Assembly (NCBI GenBank): GCA_965263355.1
Contig: CBDHHL010000048.1
Span: 192,001 to 256,000 of the forward strand
From: Leptolyngbyaceae cyanobacterium
GTDB taxonomy: Bacteria > Cyanobacteriota > Cyanobacteriia > Phormidesmidales > Phormidesmidaceae
Reading direction: 5' to 3'
DNA length: 64,000 nucleotides
Shown here: piece after piece, positions 40,982 to 52,912 of the stretch
Position numbering within the stretch: position 1 is the first letter of the stretch
Layout: every line of letters starts with the position of its first letter
The notes under the pieces: model-generated
What the model saw: the letters and a program-made list of their open reading frames with translations, nothing else
Told to the model about the DNA's origin: nothing
The model's database searches: none
Program-made: the position numbers and the translations under genes

Positions 40982-41032
40982 AATCTCCAAATTTCCTTTT
41001 CAGCGGCAGCAAAGAACATGTCCTAAATCCAG

Positions 41033-41100
41033 TTTGGAACAGTCCAACTAATATCCTATTTGGAACGAACCAACTAATATTCGGTTTGGAACGGTCCAAA
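41033..41100. repeat. Three palindromic TTTGGAACnnnCCAA units at 26-bp period upstream of acpP
   Basis: Units start at 41033, 41059 and 41085; the first two share CCAACTAATAT. Confidence 0.85.
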
Positions 41101-41501
41101 ACGTTAGAACGTCTGTCCAGATTTAGGCATTTTTTCATCTTATAGGAAAGCGTGCGCCCTACATGGGCGCACAACAGTCACATTTTGAGCAACCCGCCAC
41201 GGCCAACACCGACAATATTACAATCCATAAACTTTTGACACGTTGCTCCGTTCCCTAAAAACGGCACTGATAGACTAAATCTTGATTGGAGAACTCTTTT
41301 GGCTAATTTTGGCTAATGTAAACAGGTTACGTCGGTTGTGATCTAAACCACATCTAAGTTGAAACCCGTAGGTCCTTCTAGGGATAAAGTTTCAGTACTG
41401 GACGTGGATAAGGTTTTATGTATCCTTCGGAACACATTCTAAGAATTTGTTTACGGGTCAAGCTATAGTCAAGCCACCATATAGCTGAAACCGTTTAATA
41501 A

Positions 41502-41765
<264 letters not shown>

Positions 41766-46861: not shown

Positions 46862-48601
46862 TCAGCGTAAATAATCGATAATCCCCTGGGCAATCGCATC
46901 GGCAATCTGCTCACGGGCAGCCATACTTTGAAACCGGGTCGCATCTTCGCTACCGGTCACAAATCCGGTTTCTACTAAAACCGCAGGCATAGACGTATTG
47001 CGAAGCACATAGAACCGAGCTTGACGAACACCGCGATCGCGTAGGTCTGTACTACGCAATACACTGCTGTGAATAGCCCGAGCCAGATTGCGGCCTGACG
47101 AATAATAGTAAGTCTCTAGACCATTCACTTCAGGACGGCTAAGACTAATGGCATTGGCATGGATACTCACAAAGACGGTGGCATTAGCACGTTCCGCAAT
47201 ATCAACCCGAGGCTGTAGATCTAGCTCCACATCTTGAGTACGGGTCAGTGCGGCTCGATAGCCCCGCTGCTCCAGCGTACGCTGAAGACGGCGAGAAATC
47301 GACATATTGATTTCCTTCTCCAGCAAACCGCTACGCCCGACTGCACCTGGATCGCGGCCACCATGCCCTGGATCGATCATCACCAGAATTTCTCCTTGGC
47401 CAGCCGATGGTCTGGGAATATTGGGAGAAGGGCTAGGACTAGCAACTGTCTCAGTAGTTTGGACAATGCTGGCATTGAGTCCAGCATCTTGCAAACGTCC
47501 CTGCAGCTGATTGGCGCGGGATTGTTCACGAAAGCGACCTGCCTGAATCACAGCTTGACCATTAACCGTGGTACGAAATGCACCTGGTTCTACCGCATTT
47601 ACTCGCGATCTCAACAGCGCGGAACTCCCCGGTACAATCACCTGATACACTACCGCTGCCGATGGTGTAGAGGGTGCTGGGGTACTCACCCGAGCTGTTT
47701 CCACAATCTGCGCCGAGAGACCAGCCTGCACTAACCGCTGACGTAATTCATTAGCCCGAGCTTGCTCACGAAAGCGGCCCGCCTGAATCACAGTCTGACC
47801 ATTAACCGTGGTACGAAATGCACCTGGTTCTACCGCATTTACTCGCGATCGCAACAGCGCAGAACTCCCCGGTACAATCACTTGATAGTCAACATCATCC
47901 CTTGACCCTGGCGAGGGACTACCCGGACGTGGTAAGGGATTACCACTGCTAGGGGGAGTAGGTAAGGGTCTGGGGGATGGTCTGGGGGTTGTCGGCGCAG
48001 GACTTGCCGGTCTACTGGTGCCTGACGCTGCGATCACAGCATCCAGAGACTGATTATTAGTTAAGTAAATATGTCCCAGGGACTGACCGTTGTATACGCG
48101 CCGGGTCATGGACCAACCCGCATCTAACTCAATTTTGACAAAGTCATTAGTAATCCCATTGGAGCGGCCTAGTTCTAATTTCGGCAAGCCTCGCTGTAAT
48201 GGGCTAGGAGACGCCACCAACACTAAAACATCTCCTTGCTTTTCCACCTGAAGACGATAGCGTGAGCCGAGATCTTCTCCATCGATACGGACAGAATAAC
48301 CATTACTGTCCGAACTGCGGCCACAAATACCTGAGAAGTCAAACGTCAGCAGCAAAGGATTAATTGTCGTCGGATTATTGCCTTGCTCTTCCCAACAACG
48401 TCGGACTGAGCTTAATTGCTCGATAATCAACAGTTTATAAAATCGGCCATTGCTAACGGGTTCTGCTACGGCAACGACGCGATCGTCTGATATGGGCTGC
48501 TGGCCAAATTGAGCTGCCAGCACATTAGAGGGTAACGCCATAACTGCGCTAGCAGCAGCTACAGCCGACAGTGTGGTGAGTTGACGAAGAAATGATTTCA
48601 T
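46862..48601 (-). CDS. N-acetylmuramoyl-L-alanine amidase (DUF3747-like N-terminus, two SPOR-like repeats, Amidase_3)
   Basis: Signal peptide; FDFSGICGRSSDSNGYSVR; IDPGHGG, EK, SIHANA, VLVETGF. Confidence 0.9.
   Translation of the reverse strand: MKSFLRQLTTLSAVAAASAVMALPSNVLAAQFGQQPISDDRVVAVAEPVSNGRFYKLLIIEQLSSVRRCWEEQGNNPTTINPLLLTFDFSGICGRSSDSNGYSVRIDGEDLGSRYRLQVEKQGDVLVLVASPSPLQRGLPKLELGRSNGITNDFVKIELDAGWSMTRRVYNGQSLGHIYLTNNQSLDAVIAASGTSRPASPAPTTPRPSPRPLPTPPSSGNPLPRPGSPSPGSRDDVDYQVIVPGSSALLRSRVNAVEPGAFRTTVNGQTVIQAGRFREQARANELRQRLVQAGLSAQIVETARVSTPAPSTPSAAVVYQVIVPGSSALLRSRVNAVEPGAFRTTVNGQAVIQAGRFREQSRANQLQGRLQDAGLNASIVQTTETVASPSPSPNIPRPSAGQGEILVMIDPGHGGRDPGAVGRSGLLEKEINMSISRRLQRTLEQRGYRAALTRTQDVELDLQPRVDIAERANATVFVSIHANAISLSRPEVNGLETYYYSSGRNLARAIHSSVLRSTDLRDRGVRQARFYVLRNTSMPAVLVETGFVTGSEDATRFQSMAAREQIADAIAQGIIDYLR
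47526..47887. repeat. Intragenic direct repeat (240-bp offset) in the amidase gene
   Basis: 47526-47647 vs 47766-47887: 7 mismatches in 122 nt by manual alignment. Confidence 0.9.
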
Positions 48602-49191
48602 ATCCCTGAGGGTCGCGGGTAGGAGATAGATTGTCAAAAGGTGACATTACAGGAAACACAAGGTTAGCGTCTAACTGGTGTTTACGTAGTTTTCCGGGAA
48701 AGGATGCCCATTCGGTAAGAAACTATATCAGTTCATCAGGTGTCCGTGATGAGATTTGACTGTGAAGGGCTCAAAGCCGTCCTATGGGTGTGTATCTACA
48801 AACACTGAGATGTGGAGCTTTCAGGGTTGGCACAACTCAATCTTAAGAACCGGTGTCTGAGTCCTAGGGGTCCGTCAAGCCTAAGACTTAGGATAAGGCT
48901 AGTAAAGAGTCAAACGGAATGAAGAGTGACGCTTTACCCTTTACTCTTCCTCAATACAGAATCCTAATTTTTAGCGTTGACGCTGCACGAGTATCTGCCC
49001 CGAGGTACCATCTTGCCTCAGGTGAGTTAGCCGCATCGTCCTCATCAAGGGTTCATTAAGTTTTTAAGATAAGTCCTCTGAAGAAAACAGATTTCTTTTG
49101 TAGCACTACTCAGGATATGTACGTAAACTCATCCTTTACGAGCTATACATCCACAGGGGACGTCACTGTTACACATAAAAGGAGAATAAAC

Positions 49192-49587
49192 ATGGGTCTG
49201 GCAGAAAGACGTGCGGTTAAACAGTTTGAAACTGAAAAACTACCCACACTTCAGGCTGATATTGATCACGTGGCTGGCTTTAACGTCCCAATCGAGATTA
49301 ATTGGGATGCGATCGCAGCAAACGGTTATGCTGATCAGTACAATGAGTTTTTTTATAAGGTTTACTTCCTGCCTCTGCTCGAAGCTCTTAAAAGTATATG
49401 CATTGACGATCTGGGTAAAGAAGCCCTTAAAGACGGCCTTAAGAAGGTCATTGTTACCAATGAAAGTAGCTCCCATCCTAACTTTACGTCCGGCATACTA
49501 AAGCTACCCTACAATTCAGTCGCCAATATTGACTACTGGATGGAACGCAAAAAAAATATCCAAACCGTTTTAGAAAACGGACTGTAA
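49192..49587 (+). CDS. Hypothetical protein (131 aa, MGLAERRA..)
   Basis: AAGGAG RBS then ATG 49192; globular-looking sequence; 4 nt before the next gene. Confidence 0.8.
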   Translation: MGLAERRAVKQFETEKLPTLQADIDHVAGFNVPIEINWDAIAANGYADQYNEFFYKVYFLPLLEALKSICIDDLGKEALKDGLKKVIVTNESSSHPNFTSGILKLPYNSVANIDYWMERKKNIQTVLENGL

Positions 49588-49591
49588 ACCC

Positions 49592-50293
49592 ATGGGGCAA
49601 ATTATAGACCTGCTTAGACGACTGCCAACAAAGTCGCCATCACAAATCTTAAACCAATTAAGTAACCTCCATGATCGCGTGCTCAGTGGAGAAACCATAG
49701 AATTGCCCGCAGTTACTATCATACTGTCATCGGGCCAGTCCCTGCGAGGGATCGTTTTAAAACTAGAGCAACCAACAGACTGCCAAGACAATATTCTACT
49801 ATTACAATCTGCAAACCAGGATGTCTTATACTTACTGCAGTCTGCTGTGGTCGGTGTTACTATCCACTACAATCAAGAGAATCTAAATCTTTTGACAGCC
49901 GAAAGCAGTACTTATAAACCTCCACAAAAAGATATTGTCTCTCGTTTAGATTTAAATCGCCAGGCCCAAACATTAACGACAAACTTAGCAACATCTGATA
50001 TTGACTGTGCCATTCGTCTAAACTGGGATTTATTGCCCACAACAGAACCATCCATGCAGGTATTGACAAATAGCCTACAAGATCTGGAAACAATTTTAAT
50101 GGACATTCAGGCAGAAACGATTGGCCGTATCGCCCTTGCCACACAGGTAAGGTCCATTGAGCTACAGGCAGGCACCGAGGCCAACATTCGATTAGCAGAA
50201 CAAACATTGATGCTATGTTTTGCAAGACTAGGCAATGATCTTGTTCCGTGGCCCAAAGCTCGCTTACATCAGACTATCGAACAACATTTATAG
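49592..50293 (+). CDS. Hypothetical protein: possible Sm/LSm-like N-domain plus C-domain paralogous to the upstream protein
   Basis: 233-aa ORF in apparent operon; domain calls from manual motif alignment only. Confidence 0.7.
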   Translation: MGQIIDLLRRLPTKSPSQILNQLSNLHDRVLSGETIELPAVTIILSSGQSLRGIVLKLEQPTDCQDNILLLQSANQDVLYLLQSAVVGVTIHYNQENLNLLTAESSTYKPPQKDIVSRLDLNRQAQTLTTNLATSDIDCAIRLNWDLLPTTEPSMQVLTNSLQDLETILMDIQAETIGRIALATQVRSIELQAGTEANIRLAEQTLMLCFARLGNDLVPWPKARLHQTIEQHL

Positions 50294-50305
50294 AACAACC
50301 AACGG

Positions 50306-52912
50306 TTAGCACCACAAAGATGGACGACTAATGCCATACCCTTGGACAAAGTCGACGCCAATAGATTGCATTTTAGCCAGAATTGACTCATTTTCTACGG
50401 ATTCAGCAATGGTCTGTAAACCCATAACACTGCCAACTCGATGGATCGACTCAACAATAGCCTCGGTTGTAGAGTCTGTTGTTATATCTTGGATAAAATC
50501 ACCATCAATTTTGAGAAAATCAACGGGTAATGCCTTTAAATAGGCAAATGAAGACATACCACTGCCAAAATCGTCTAAAGCAAAGCGACATCCTAATCGA
50601 CTCAGCGCTCGAATAAATGACGTCGCCCCTTTAAAGTCAGAGATAGCAGCTGTTTCCGTAATTTCAAAACAAATCACGTCAGGCGGCACACTAAACCGCT
50701 GAAATTGAGCAATCACAAACTCAAGAAACTGCTCATCATTAAGGCTATCACCAGAGAGATTAATACTATAAAGGATATTTCCAACACCTTCTTTGAGCAA
50801 TTTTTCTAAATTTAATAAACAAGTTTGTATAATCCAGCGATCTAACATAGGCATCAAACCATATCGTTCAGCTGCTGGGATAAATTCTGCTGGAGAGATG
50901 CTCTCTCCAGATTCCTTCAGCATACGCACAAGCACCTCGTAAAAATCAATCAATGACCGTTCAGAATTCAGCGTTTGTACAATTTTCTGACGATAGAGAC
51001 AAAAGCGATTATTCTCAAGTGCTTGACGGATAACAACACTCCAATGCCGTTCTTGTCGCTGTTGGCTCAGCTCAGCATTATCTTTTTGATAAATCTGAAT
51101 GCGATTACGGCCTCGATACTTAGCGGCATAACAGGCAGCATCGGCAGCACTCATGACAGCTATAGCATCTGTACTATTAGTGTCTACAGCCACTAGACCA
51201 ATACTCACACCAATCCGAAAAACTTGATCCTGCCAAACAAATGGATAATCTGCTATCGCCTGACGTAGGTTTTCAGCAATGTTCACAGCCTGCTCCATCG
51301 GGCATTGCGTGAGTAAAATACCAAACTCGTCCCCTCCAAGCCGAGCCACCGTATCTGCAGCTCGCGTGTGACATTTTAGCAAGCGGGCTAACTGCCGCAA
51401 TAGTTCATCCCCTGCTAGATGACCACTCGTGTCATTCACCACCTTAAATTGATCAAGATCTAAATAACAAAATACATGGTGCTGATTTTGTTGCACTGCC
51501 GTTAGCACCATCTCCTCCAATTCAGCTTCAAAATAGCGACGATTATACAATTCTGTTAATGCGTCATGGCTGGCTTGCCAACTCAGCTGTCTTGCCATAG
51601 CACGAGACTGGGTAACATCGTGAAACACCATAACAACGCCAATCATTTTTTGTTGTCGGTTCAGGATAGGCGCAGCTGAATCCTCGATACTAAATTCGTG
51701 ACCATCACGACGAACCAAAACTGTATGATTCGCCAAACCTGTCACCAAGCCATTTGCTAGGACCTGCTCTACAGGATTCACAGCAGGCTCTCGCGTCGTT
51801 TCATGAATAACATTGAAAACTTCAGAAAGGGGATGCCCGTGGGCTGCCTGGGTTGACCACCCTGTCATAACTTCGGCAACAGGATTTAGATAATTCACTC
51901 GACCAACAGAATCGGTCGTAATAACAGCATCACCAATGGAATCGAGGGTGACTTGAGCAATTTCTTTTTCGGTTTCTAGGGCCACTTCCAACAGCTTACG
52001 GTTGGTGATATCGGTAATGGTACCAACATAGCCACTTAAATCACCACTAGTGTCGTACTCAGCAACAGCCTGACCAACCACCCAGGTCACTTCACCCGCT
52101 GGTGTCTGAAATCGATATTCGGATTCAAACGGTTGGTTAGTTTGAGCGGCATGGTACCAGTCATGGGACACCCGGGCTCGATCACCAGAATGAATAGCGC
52201 TCACCCAACCTGAGCCTAACGCTTGCTCAATTGAGAGACCTGCAATATCGCACCAGTGTTGATTAACATAGACACAATCACCTTGAGAATCAGTTCGAAA
52301 GATTCCTACAGGTACAGCTGCTGCCAGATTAGCATAGTGATTTCGACTTTCCTTAAATTGAGATGTTTGCGATTTAAGTAGTGATAAATTTTCATCTTGC
52401 AGGCAAGTCAGCTCCTCCCTAAGAATTTGAATAGTTTGATACATATCTGATGGCTCTAGCATTGACAGGATACTGGTTTGGGTAACAACCCCCAGTAATT
52501 TTCCCTGGCTATCTAATACCGGTAAATAGCGAATACGGTGCCGCTTGAAAAGGGCAATGACATCAAATGGATGCGCTAAGTCTTTGGCCGTAATCGCGAT
52601 AACATTAGTTGCCATGACGTCAGCAACCGTAAAAGCCTGCAAATCTCTGGCCTGAGAAATAACCTTAACAACATCATGTTCAGTGAAAATACCGAGTAAC
52701 TGCTCCCCTGACATAACAAGACAGTAACTAGTTGCAATGGGGGGTCTACCGACTAGGGTTCCAGGGGAATTCACATGCCCCTGCGACATCCACTGTATAA
52801 CCTGACGTAAGGAAGCATTAGGTTCTACAACTAAAGGGAATTGATCAATATCAACTCGCTTAACAAACCCATCCATTATTTGGATAGAGAACTTATTATT
52901 TTCAGGCTCCAT
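50306..52912 (-). CDS. CBS-PAS-PAS-GGDEF-EAL c-di-GMP signalling protein
   Basis: CBS pair (GIFTEHD; LPVLD), two PAS/PAC (DIT; DVT), RLGGDEF, EVLVR, DDFGSG, KIDG, QGY. Confidence 0.92.
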   Translation of the reverse strand: MEPENNKFSIQIMDGFVKRVDIDQFPLVVEPNASLRQVIQWMSQGHVNSPGTLVGRPPIATSYCLVMSGEQLLGIFTEHDVVKVISQARDLQAFTVADVMATNVIAITAKDLAHPFDVIALFKRHRIRYLPVLDSQGKLLGVVTQTSILSMLEPSDMYQTIQILREELTCLQDENLSLLKSQTSQFKESRNHYANLAAAVPVGIFRTDSQGDCVYVNQHWCDIAGLSIEQALGSGWVSAIHSGDRARVSHDWYHAAQTNQPFESEYRFQTPAGEVTWVVGQAVAEYDTSGDLSGYVGTITDITNRKLLEVALETEKEIAQVTLDSIGDAVITTDSVGRVNYLNPVAEVMTGWSTQAAHGHPLSEVFNVIHETTREPAVNPVEQVLANGLVTGLANHTVLVRRDGHEFSIEDSAAPILNRQQKMIGVVMVFHDVTQSRAMARQLSWQASHDALTELYNRRYFEAELEEMVLTAVQQNQHHVFCYLDLDQFKVVNDTSGHLAGDELLRQLARLLKCHTRAADTVARLGGDEFGILLTQCPMEQAVNIAENLRQAIADYPFVWQDQVFRIGVSIGLVAVDTNSTDAIAVMSAADAACYAAKYRGRNRIQIYQKDNAELSQQRQERHWSVVIRQALENNRFCLYRQKIVQTLNSERSLIDFYEVLVRMLKESGESISPAEFIPAAERYGLMPMLDRWIIQTCLLNLEKLLKEGVGNILYSINLSGDSLNDEQFLEFVIAQFQRFSVPPDVICFEITETAAISDFKGATSFIRALSRLGCRFALDDFGSGMSSFAYLKALPVDFLKIDGDFIQDITTDSTTEAIVESIHRVGSVMGLQTIAESVENESILAKMQSIGVDFVQGYGISRPSLWC

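Follow-up and report, generated by a model that had tools for sequence, protein, structure and literature searches.

What do two adjacent genes that no family library names encode, and do their products work together? The question is raised by ORF1 and ORF2, which lie side by side on the + strand with a gap of 4 nt (49192–50293) in a 64,000-nt stretch of a Leptolyngbyaceae cyanobacterium contig; the whole of this stretch is called the window here. The original prediction was an undescribed two-gene module in which an Sm domain is fused to a paralog of the partner protein; this description, and conservation of the module, were supported by the pairing, the paralogy and the fold. Its further idea, a ring-forming hub that partners the free paralog, is treated here as a proposal.

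The gene pair and its locus

The two open reading frames had been described as unannotatable and as preceded by a ribosome-binding site; their coordinates and the AGGAG sequence were confirmed (Table 1). It was also checked whether the pair already belonged to a characterised family. No family library was found to name either gene, neither of which matched Pfam, NCBIfam, PADLOC or PHROGs at E < 0.01. The ESM Atlas matches of the proteins were clusters with hypothetical names only, commonest in Myxococcota and Bacteroidota.

Table 1. Features of the ORF1–ORF2 locus in window coordinates
Feature	Coordinates	Strand	Remarks
Shine-Dalgarno-like AGGAG	49180..49184	+	from the sequence; 7 nt ahead of the ORF1 ATG
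ORF1 (131 aa), the shared alpha/beta domain on its own	49192..49587	+	zincin N-subdomain-like fold (predicted)
ORF2, 233 aa, two domains: Sm barrel and ORF1-like domain	49592..50293	+	
ORF2 residues 2–31, two N-terminal helices	49595..49684	+	second corresponds to the Sm/Hfq N-terminal helix (aligned model range 12–102)
ORF2 residues 40–92, five-stranded Sm barrel	49709..49867	+	G48 and G53 near-invariant; no Hfq [YF]KH
ORF2 residues 118–233, diverged ORF1 paralog	49943..50290	+	conserved R123, D/E175-x-x-G178, E230 and terminal L233

The window has a cyanobacterial setting: by eye, the gene at 41520 was named as psaC-like and others as fabF/acpP-like. The pair is flanked by a divergent DUF3747-SPOR-amidase gene and by a convergent CBS-PAS-GGDEF-EAL gene, which lies 12 nt from the ORF2 stop and is followed by an SNF2 helicase gene. 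The GC content of ORF1 and ORF2 (0.42–0.43) is slightly lower than that of most neighbours (0.46–0.52), the EAL gene being at 0.44. An Rfam scan of 48550–50400 gave no match, and promoter and terminator predictions at the locus gave matches at chance level.

Several repeats were observed nearby. A segment ~120 nt long upstream of ORF1 (48870–48995) is covered at high depth, in several runs, by a large number of distinct contigs; it resembles a dispersed repeat or a small mobile element, with no Rfam match and no second copy in the window. Three head-to-tail 26-nt repeats (73–81% identity to the first) lie between acpP and psaC at 41027–41104, and the DUF3747-SPOR-SPOR-Amidase_3 gene (46862–48637) contains an internal 138-nt repeat at 47510 and 47750.

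The module is accessory at this locus. In a syntenic relative (L001) the amidase, ORF1, EAL and SNF2 genes were kept and ORF2 was absent, with no ORF2 remnant found in that contig. On a contig from another run, the spacing from the amidase gene to the EAL gene was ~630 nt, compared with ~1,830 nt in the window. The ORF1 of L001 (6001–6429) lacks the conserved C-terminal end and runs on for 11 codons where ORF2 is missing, and it may be decaying. The c-di-GMP protein and the SNF2 helicase that had been pointed out next to the pair are both present, but a link of either to the module was rejected, because L001 has both of them and ORF1 while lacking ORF2, and because in other phyla neither was seen again next to the pair.

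Paralogy and folds of the two proteins

By pairwise BLAST the paralogy of ORF1 and ORF2 was invisible (E 62), and profiles were therefore needed. Comparison of 86 ORF1 homologs with 95 ORF2 homologs by hhalign gave a probability of 98.3% (E 2e-14), and comparison of the ORF1 profile with the ORF2 C-domain (ORF2-C) alone gave 98.6% (E 1e-15); the reversed-alignment controls of the latter gave 0.33% and 0.37%. The alignment of ORF1 with ORF2-C that had previously been made by eye was recovered in the same blocks and the same register, and both proteins share the conserved ending E-x-x-L. In the AlphaFold2 models, one helix-strand order was common to ORF1 3–130 and ORF2 118–232. The ORF1 model had a pLDDT of 97, and the ORF2 model had a pLDDT of 92 and a pTM of 0.65, with low confidence only near residues 101–110. 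ORF1 is a stand-alone acidic alpha/beta domain, and in the models ORF2 is an Sm barrel to which a diverged version of the ORF1 domain is attached through a flexible linker.

An Sm fold had been proposed for the N-terminal half of ORF2. The AlphaFold2 model contains five strands (40–45, 50–59, 67–71, 78–82 and 86–92) with a helix ahead of them, and in a Foldseek search with this barrel Hfq chains ranked first (E 5.5e-4). With VIA-align, the highest values were obtained for Rof/YaeO (Z 8.7, rmsd 3.2, 72 residues, 12% identity), for a domain of a diheme cytochrome (Z 8.6), for Hfq (Z 8.0–8.6, 65–70 residues, 13–24% identity; Bacillus subtilis Hfq Z 8.6, Synechocystis Hfq Z 8.0) and for WYL domains (Z 7.7–8.0, 6–10% identity), and these top rows are to be regarded as tied. 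The spore proteins CgeA (Z 7.2) and GerQ (Z 6.8) followed; the excerpted text of a GerQ paper (PMC11405398) held nothing relevant under the fold terms. When the sequence profile was searched against the PDB, Sm D1/D3 accounted for 8 of 12 matches (best E 0.015), and a deeper ORF2 profile reached Hfq and Sm D3 chains at E 0.2–0.8 only. Because the structure matches and the independent sequence-profile matches agree, the predicted Sm fold of the ORF2 N-half can be regarded as secure, as had been claimed, more so than any assignment to one kind of Sm protein. The Hfq family PF17209 was not among the Pfam families matched by the 95 ORF2 members, and the NCBIfam Hfq model TIGR02383 gave a best E of 0.084, in one of the 95.

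The Hfq signature consists of the Sm2 [YF]KH motif and basic RNA-binding surfaces. None of the 95 ORF2 barrels carries the [YF]KH motif, the Sm-type [IVL]RG motif was found in one of them, and the net charge of the barrel has a median of –1 and is positive in 5% of the 95. ORF2 shares with Hfq (PF17209), Sm and LSm proteins the N-terminal helix and the five-stranded barrel; it differs from Hfq in lacking the [YF]KH pocket, in its acidic barrel and extra N-terminal helix, and in having a fused 116-residue domain, a partner gene and predicted exported fusions.

A search for canonical Hfq was positive in 0 of 121 Myxococcota genomes, compared with 5 of 14 controls, and myxobacteria are stated to lack Hfq in the excerpted text of PMC5684412. 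This makes it tempting to assign a stand-in role to ORF2: it would be a divergent RNA chaperone that replaces Hfq, in myxobacteria above all, and ORF1 would be its accessory subunit. That Hfq is the closest fold by Foldseek, and that ORF2 occurs in 103 of 401 Myxococcota genomes, would fit such a role. Nevertheless it seems improbable, given the motif counts and the charge of the barrel, the signal-peptide-like start of 2 of the 7 full ORF1–ORF2 fusions described below (P0173 and P0237, judged by hydropathy and by eye), and the lack of ORF2 in three quarters of the Myxococcota sample. On the same sequence features, RNA binding by ORF2, an option in the original prediction, is unlikely.

Some Sm folds are known to act through protein partners. 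Rof binds Rho, according to the excerpted text of PMC11018626, and cyanobacterial Hfq lacks the RNA-binding residues and works with PilB and EbsA, according to that of PMC10989914. ORF2 resembles both in having an Sm fold without the RNA-binding signature. Unlike ORF2, they are single-domain proteins with known partners; no sequence-level match of ORF2 to either was found, and no such partner gene adjoins ORF2.

Rings are commonly built from Sm barrels by way of strands 4 and 5, although additional elements at the termini can prevent oligomerisation (10.1101/140376, excerpted text). In ORF2, the top covarying pair, 77–92, links strands 4 and 5 (z 6.3), but its signal did not survive phylogenetic control (p 0.048, rank 1348 of 17455). 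A possible alternative to a ring is that ORF2 is a monomeric or dimeric Sm adaptor like Rof or WYL, which binds one protein and is modulated by ORF1. Rof/YaeO as the top structural match and the WYL matches, neither with an Hfq-type ring, are consistent with this, and the extra N-terminal helix and the helix following strand 5, the latter present in about half of the ORF2 family, could cover an edge strand. On the other hand, Foldseek put Hfq first, the identity to Hfq is mostly higher than that to Rof and WYL, and a conserved aromatic residue at 80 and a small residue at 88 lie on the edge strands, where they would suit edge-to-edge packing. We consider the adaptor without a ring rather unlikely, although it deserves to be taken seriously.

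For the shared domain, structural comparison with a zincin N-subdomain gave Z 6.5 for ORF1 (rmsd 3.6, 115 of 131 residues aligned) and Z 7.1 for ORF2-C (rmsd 3.5, 110 aligned), the matched zincin structures being BACCAC_01431 (4l7a), Wss1 (5xbn) and M1 aminopeptidases. The HECT C-lobe (UBR5, 3pt3) gave Z 7.5 for ORF2-C and 5.2 for ORF1. Common to all is a helix, a three-stranded sheet and a terminal helix, and from the aligned ranges the terminal helix would correspond to the zincin active-site helix. With the shared domain Foldseek found no match at E ≤ 0.001; the zincin/HECT resemblance of the models is middling and may reflect a common arrangement. AAA+ small domains (ClpB and ClpX, Z 4.8–5.0) were set aside as the ORF1 fold because they cover ORF1 2–103 only.

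In contrast to zincins, the shared domain has no C-subdomain and no HExxH motif (0 of 244 ORF1 domains and 0 of 95 ORF2 proteins). In contrast to the HECT C-lobe, it has no conserved catalytic Cys; the sole Cys column (position 70) is 38% conserved, and position 100 in the last hairpin is D, G or N. With HExxH and a conserved Cys both missing, the shared domain does not qualify as a peptidase or as a ligase by the usual signatures.

Among named families DUF4908 (PF16252), itself uncharacterised and present in Caulobacter vibrioides among others, is the closest, and profile comparison places the shared domain as a remote homolog of its C-terminal half. The DUF4908 C-half was aligned by hhalign with ORF2-C at 98.8% (E 7e-17; reversed control 0.9%) and with ORF1 at 95.8% (E 7e-9). 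The ORF2-C profile matched 8 of 8 DUF4908 members fetched; PF16252 itself gave weak matches in 6 of 95 ORF2 members (best E 3e-4) and no match to ORF1 or ORF2 of the window. The start of DUF4908 is signal-peptide-like, and its beta-rich N-domain is a different one, which was unmatched with the ORF2 N-domain (hhalign 1.8–2.1%, from a 7-sequence alignment). At 3 of 8 loci, DUF4908 is followed by a free cysteine-bearing, signal-peptide-like paralog. A protein with a beta-rich domain and the shared domain, then a free copy, is thus a design judged from these sequences to appear twice. DUF4908, the cysteine-bearing exported-type paralog, ORF1 and ORF2 were observed in a row at L109:2554–5103 and L033/L201; the carriers are a Bradyrhizobium MAG and, matching it, a contig from a metagenome. 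In L202, L204 and L208 the gene immediately upstream of DUF4908 was named by eye as acetoacetyl-CoA reductase-like.

The ORF1 profile search returned at least 941 clusters at 50% identity. Its best 150 representatives include tandem doublets, and 15 of them have a signal-peptide-like N-terminus (by hydropathy and inspection), a count from which one likely chimera, P0109, was set aside. Single proteins showed further arrangements: P0090 (3,153 aa), which looks eukaryotic, contains PH domains as well as the ORF1 domain in 18 copies; P0224 carries the domain alone, with an N-terminus that looks lipid-modified (by eye); in P0156 the fusion partner of ORF1 is a small Sm-like domain of another kind (DUF6897-like, E 0.004); and in P0153, from Tenacibaculum, the partner is DUF6882. 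A query with P0156 against the neighbours of solo ORF1 genes found no small Sm neighbour. Solo ORF1 copies were also found on haloarchaeal and alphaproteobacterial plasmids, and HFX_RS17130 of Haloferax mediterranei is one such solo gene. On the haloarchaeal ones (L194–L196) they lie beside very large repeat or STAND-like proteins, and in L195 a death-on-curing toxin gene adjoins the solo ORF1.

Conservation and neighbours of the pair

Using the ORF1 N-terminal pattern, 52 genome loci were found. ORF1 and ORF2 were adjacent or fused in 34 of them (ORF2 downstream in 32, upstream in 1 and fused in 1), ORF1 occurred without ORF2 in 16, and 2 were at contig edges. A neighbourhood survey for conserved pairing had been suggested, and it found the pair, according to the record titles, in seven phyla: Cyanobacteriota, Myxococcota, Bacteroidota, Acidobacteriota, Actinomycetota, Deinococcota and Pseudomonadota. 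Among 80 metagenome loci, the partner was present in 41 and absent in 13, and the contig ended too soon in 26. In the 56 downstream pairs, the genes were within 10 nt of each other in 46 and overlapping in 29, and the stop/start overlap was kept across seven phyla at ~20% ORF2 identity.

Full ORF1–ORF2 fusions numbered 7 among the best 150 ORF1-profile representatives, and natural single-chain fusions exist in Myxococcus fulvus (WP_074957691.1). When fusion was mapped on an ORF2 tree made with FastTree, 4 changes were required, at least 2 of them forced by strong branches, and the reversed gene order formed one clade in which the genes are still adjacent. In L072 and L073, ORF2 is split over two reading frames and lies upstream of ORF1. 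The repeated fusion and the translational coupling point to a partnership. Inter-protein covariation between ORF1 and ORF2 (68 pairs) had a maximum z of 5.6, inside the range of shuffled pairings (4.4–6.3).

The partnership is not obligatory, because each gene also occurs alone. Of the 401 Myxococcota genomes, 103 contained ORF2, 86 contained ORF1 and 76 contained both, a co-occurrence that is inflated by relatedness and incomplete genomes and in which many copies are not adjacent. An ORF1 match was missing from 27 of the 103 ORF2-positive genomes, and 12 of the 30 best Myxococcota ORF2 loci had no ORF1 within 1.5 kb. Such solo copies, common for both genes, would be expected if the adjacency were a relic of an old tandem duplication and the proteins were independent. 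This explanation is, however, hard to reconcile with the stop/start overlap across seven phyla, the adjacency in the reversed-order clade and the two or more independent fusions, and it is regarded as very unlikely.

No flanking family recurred across phyla; the large flanking clusters were accounted for by reverse-frame shadows, by kinases and regulators of a generic type, and by synteny between closely related genomes. The PADLOC scan covered 146 of 160 called flanking genes from 42 of the 52 loci, with 8 near-duplicate loci and 14 genes left out. PADLOC matches were obtained for 21 of the 146 genes, and almost every one was due to a generic domain (helicase, kinase, response regulator or TPR). 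A plausible defence or toxin-antitoxin neighbour was found in ~4 of 42 loci, a figure with no genome-wide baseline beside it. Relatives of ORF1 were found neither in IMG/VR, by pattern scan, nor in INPHARED phages, and a viral fold search gave partial small-barrel matches only.

Two lineages of solo ORF2 were seen in other surroundings. In L174–L177 the gene is convergent to a ClpV-like gene and a lipoprotein gene (by eye), probably reflecting one ancestral placement, and L177 also has Imm50 and a VgrG-like gene. In L170–L173 it follows a CMP-KDO synthetase-like gene, and 3 of these 4 have a Pro/Ala-rich N-terminal extension.

The defence role offered in the original prediction was weakened by the mostly housekeeping neighbours and by the failure to find a PADLOC match or a phage copy. 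In its wider form, this role would make the genes a biological-conflict module, the shared domain being either a decoy or immunity protein (e.g. against proteases or injected toxins) or part of an anti-phage system, with cytoplasmic and exported versions. The distribution is indeed patchy: in 301 cyanobacterial genomes ORF1 was found in 4 and ORF2 in 0, with no known positive in the sample for the ORF2 search, compared with 86 and 103 of 401 in Myxococcota. Loss from the same site in relatives and the fast divergence of ORF2 also speak for a conflict module, as does the position of one solo ORF2 lineage next to a type VI secretion cluster that has Imm50 and of one pair next to a VgrG. Against it stand the few plausible defence neighbours, the generic nature of nearly all PADLOC matches, and the fact that no cognate toxin recurs beside the genes, and it is therefore considered unlikely.

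Proposed function and its meaning

The reading that we favour, tentatively and as a serious possibility that stops short of being probable, is a non-enzymatic protein-binding assembly made as a coupled pair, whose products act together, whose barrel self-associates and whose shared domain binds protein or peptide. The products of ORF1 and ORF2 would act in one complex, probably in matched amounts. The Sm barrel would be the self-association hub, pairing its edge strands as in Hfq and Sm rings and clustering the tethered domains. The shared domain, with the sheet and helix of a zincin N-subdomain, would most likely bind a protein or peptide without cutting it, because it has neither the metal ligands nor the C-subdomain; the peptide-binding step is a weak analogy, since the zincin Z scores are middling and tied with the HECT C-lobe. 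Clustering would raise avidity, and the tandem doublets and the 18-repeat array would fit as other multiplications of the domain. The target would not be RNA in the manner of Hfq, and the module could apparently work on either side of the membrane.

A broader version of this assembly is more doubtful. It holds that the ORF1-like domain, found in bacteria, haloarchaea and a eukaryote-like protein, is a binding domain shaped like a disarmed zincin half, in many bacteria mounted on an Sm ring and accompanied by a free paralog. The result would be a purely protein, multivalent, heteromeric and exportable scaffold, its Sm protein present in a quarter of the sampled genomes of Myxococcota, a phylum in which Hfq was not found.

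In the open-access literature no description of the module or of DUF4908 was found; supplements and subscription journals could list the proteins in a family-wide catalogue. The module adds a bacterial Sm-fold family, argued here not to be an RNA chaperone, with a new architecture and a conserved partner, above all in Myxococcota, which are reported to be without Hfq. Through it a family that had no name, with at least 941 clusters at 50% identity, becomes linked to DUF4908. It also suggests that one design, a beta-rich hub with the domain and then a free domain, was built twice, once in the cytoplasm and once outside it. Should the ring and the complex prove real, Sm rings would be general protein scaffolds, possibly also in the periplasm.
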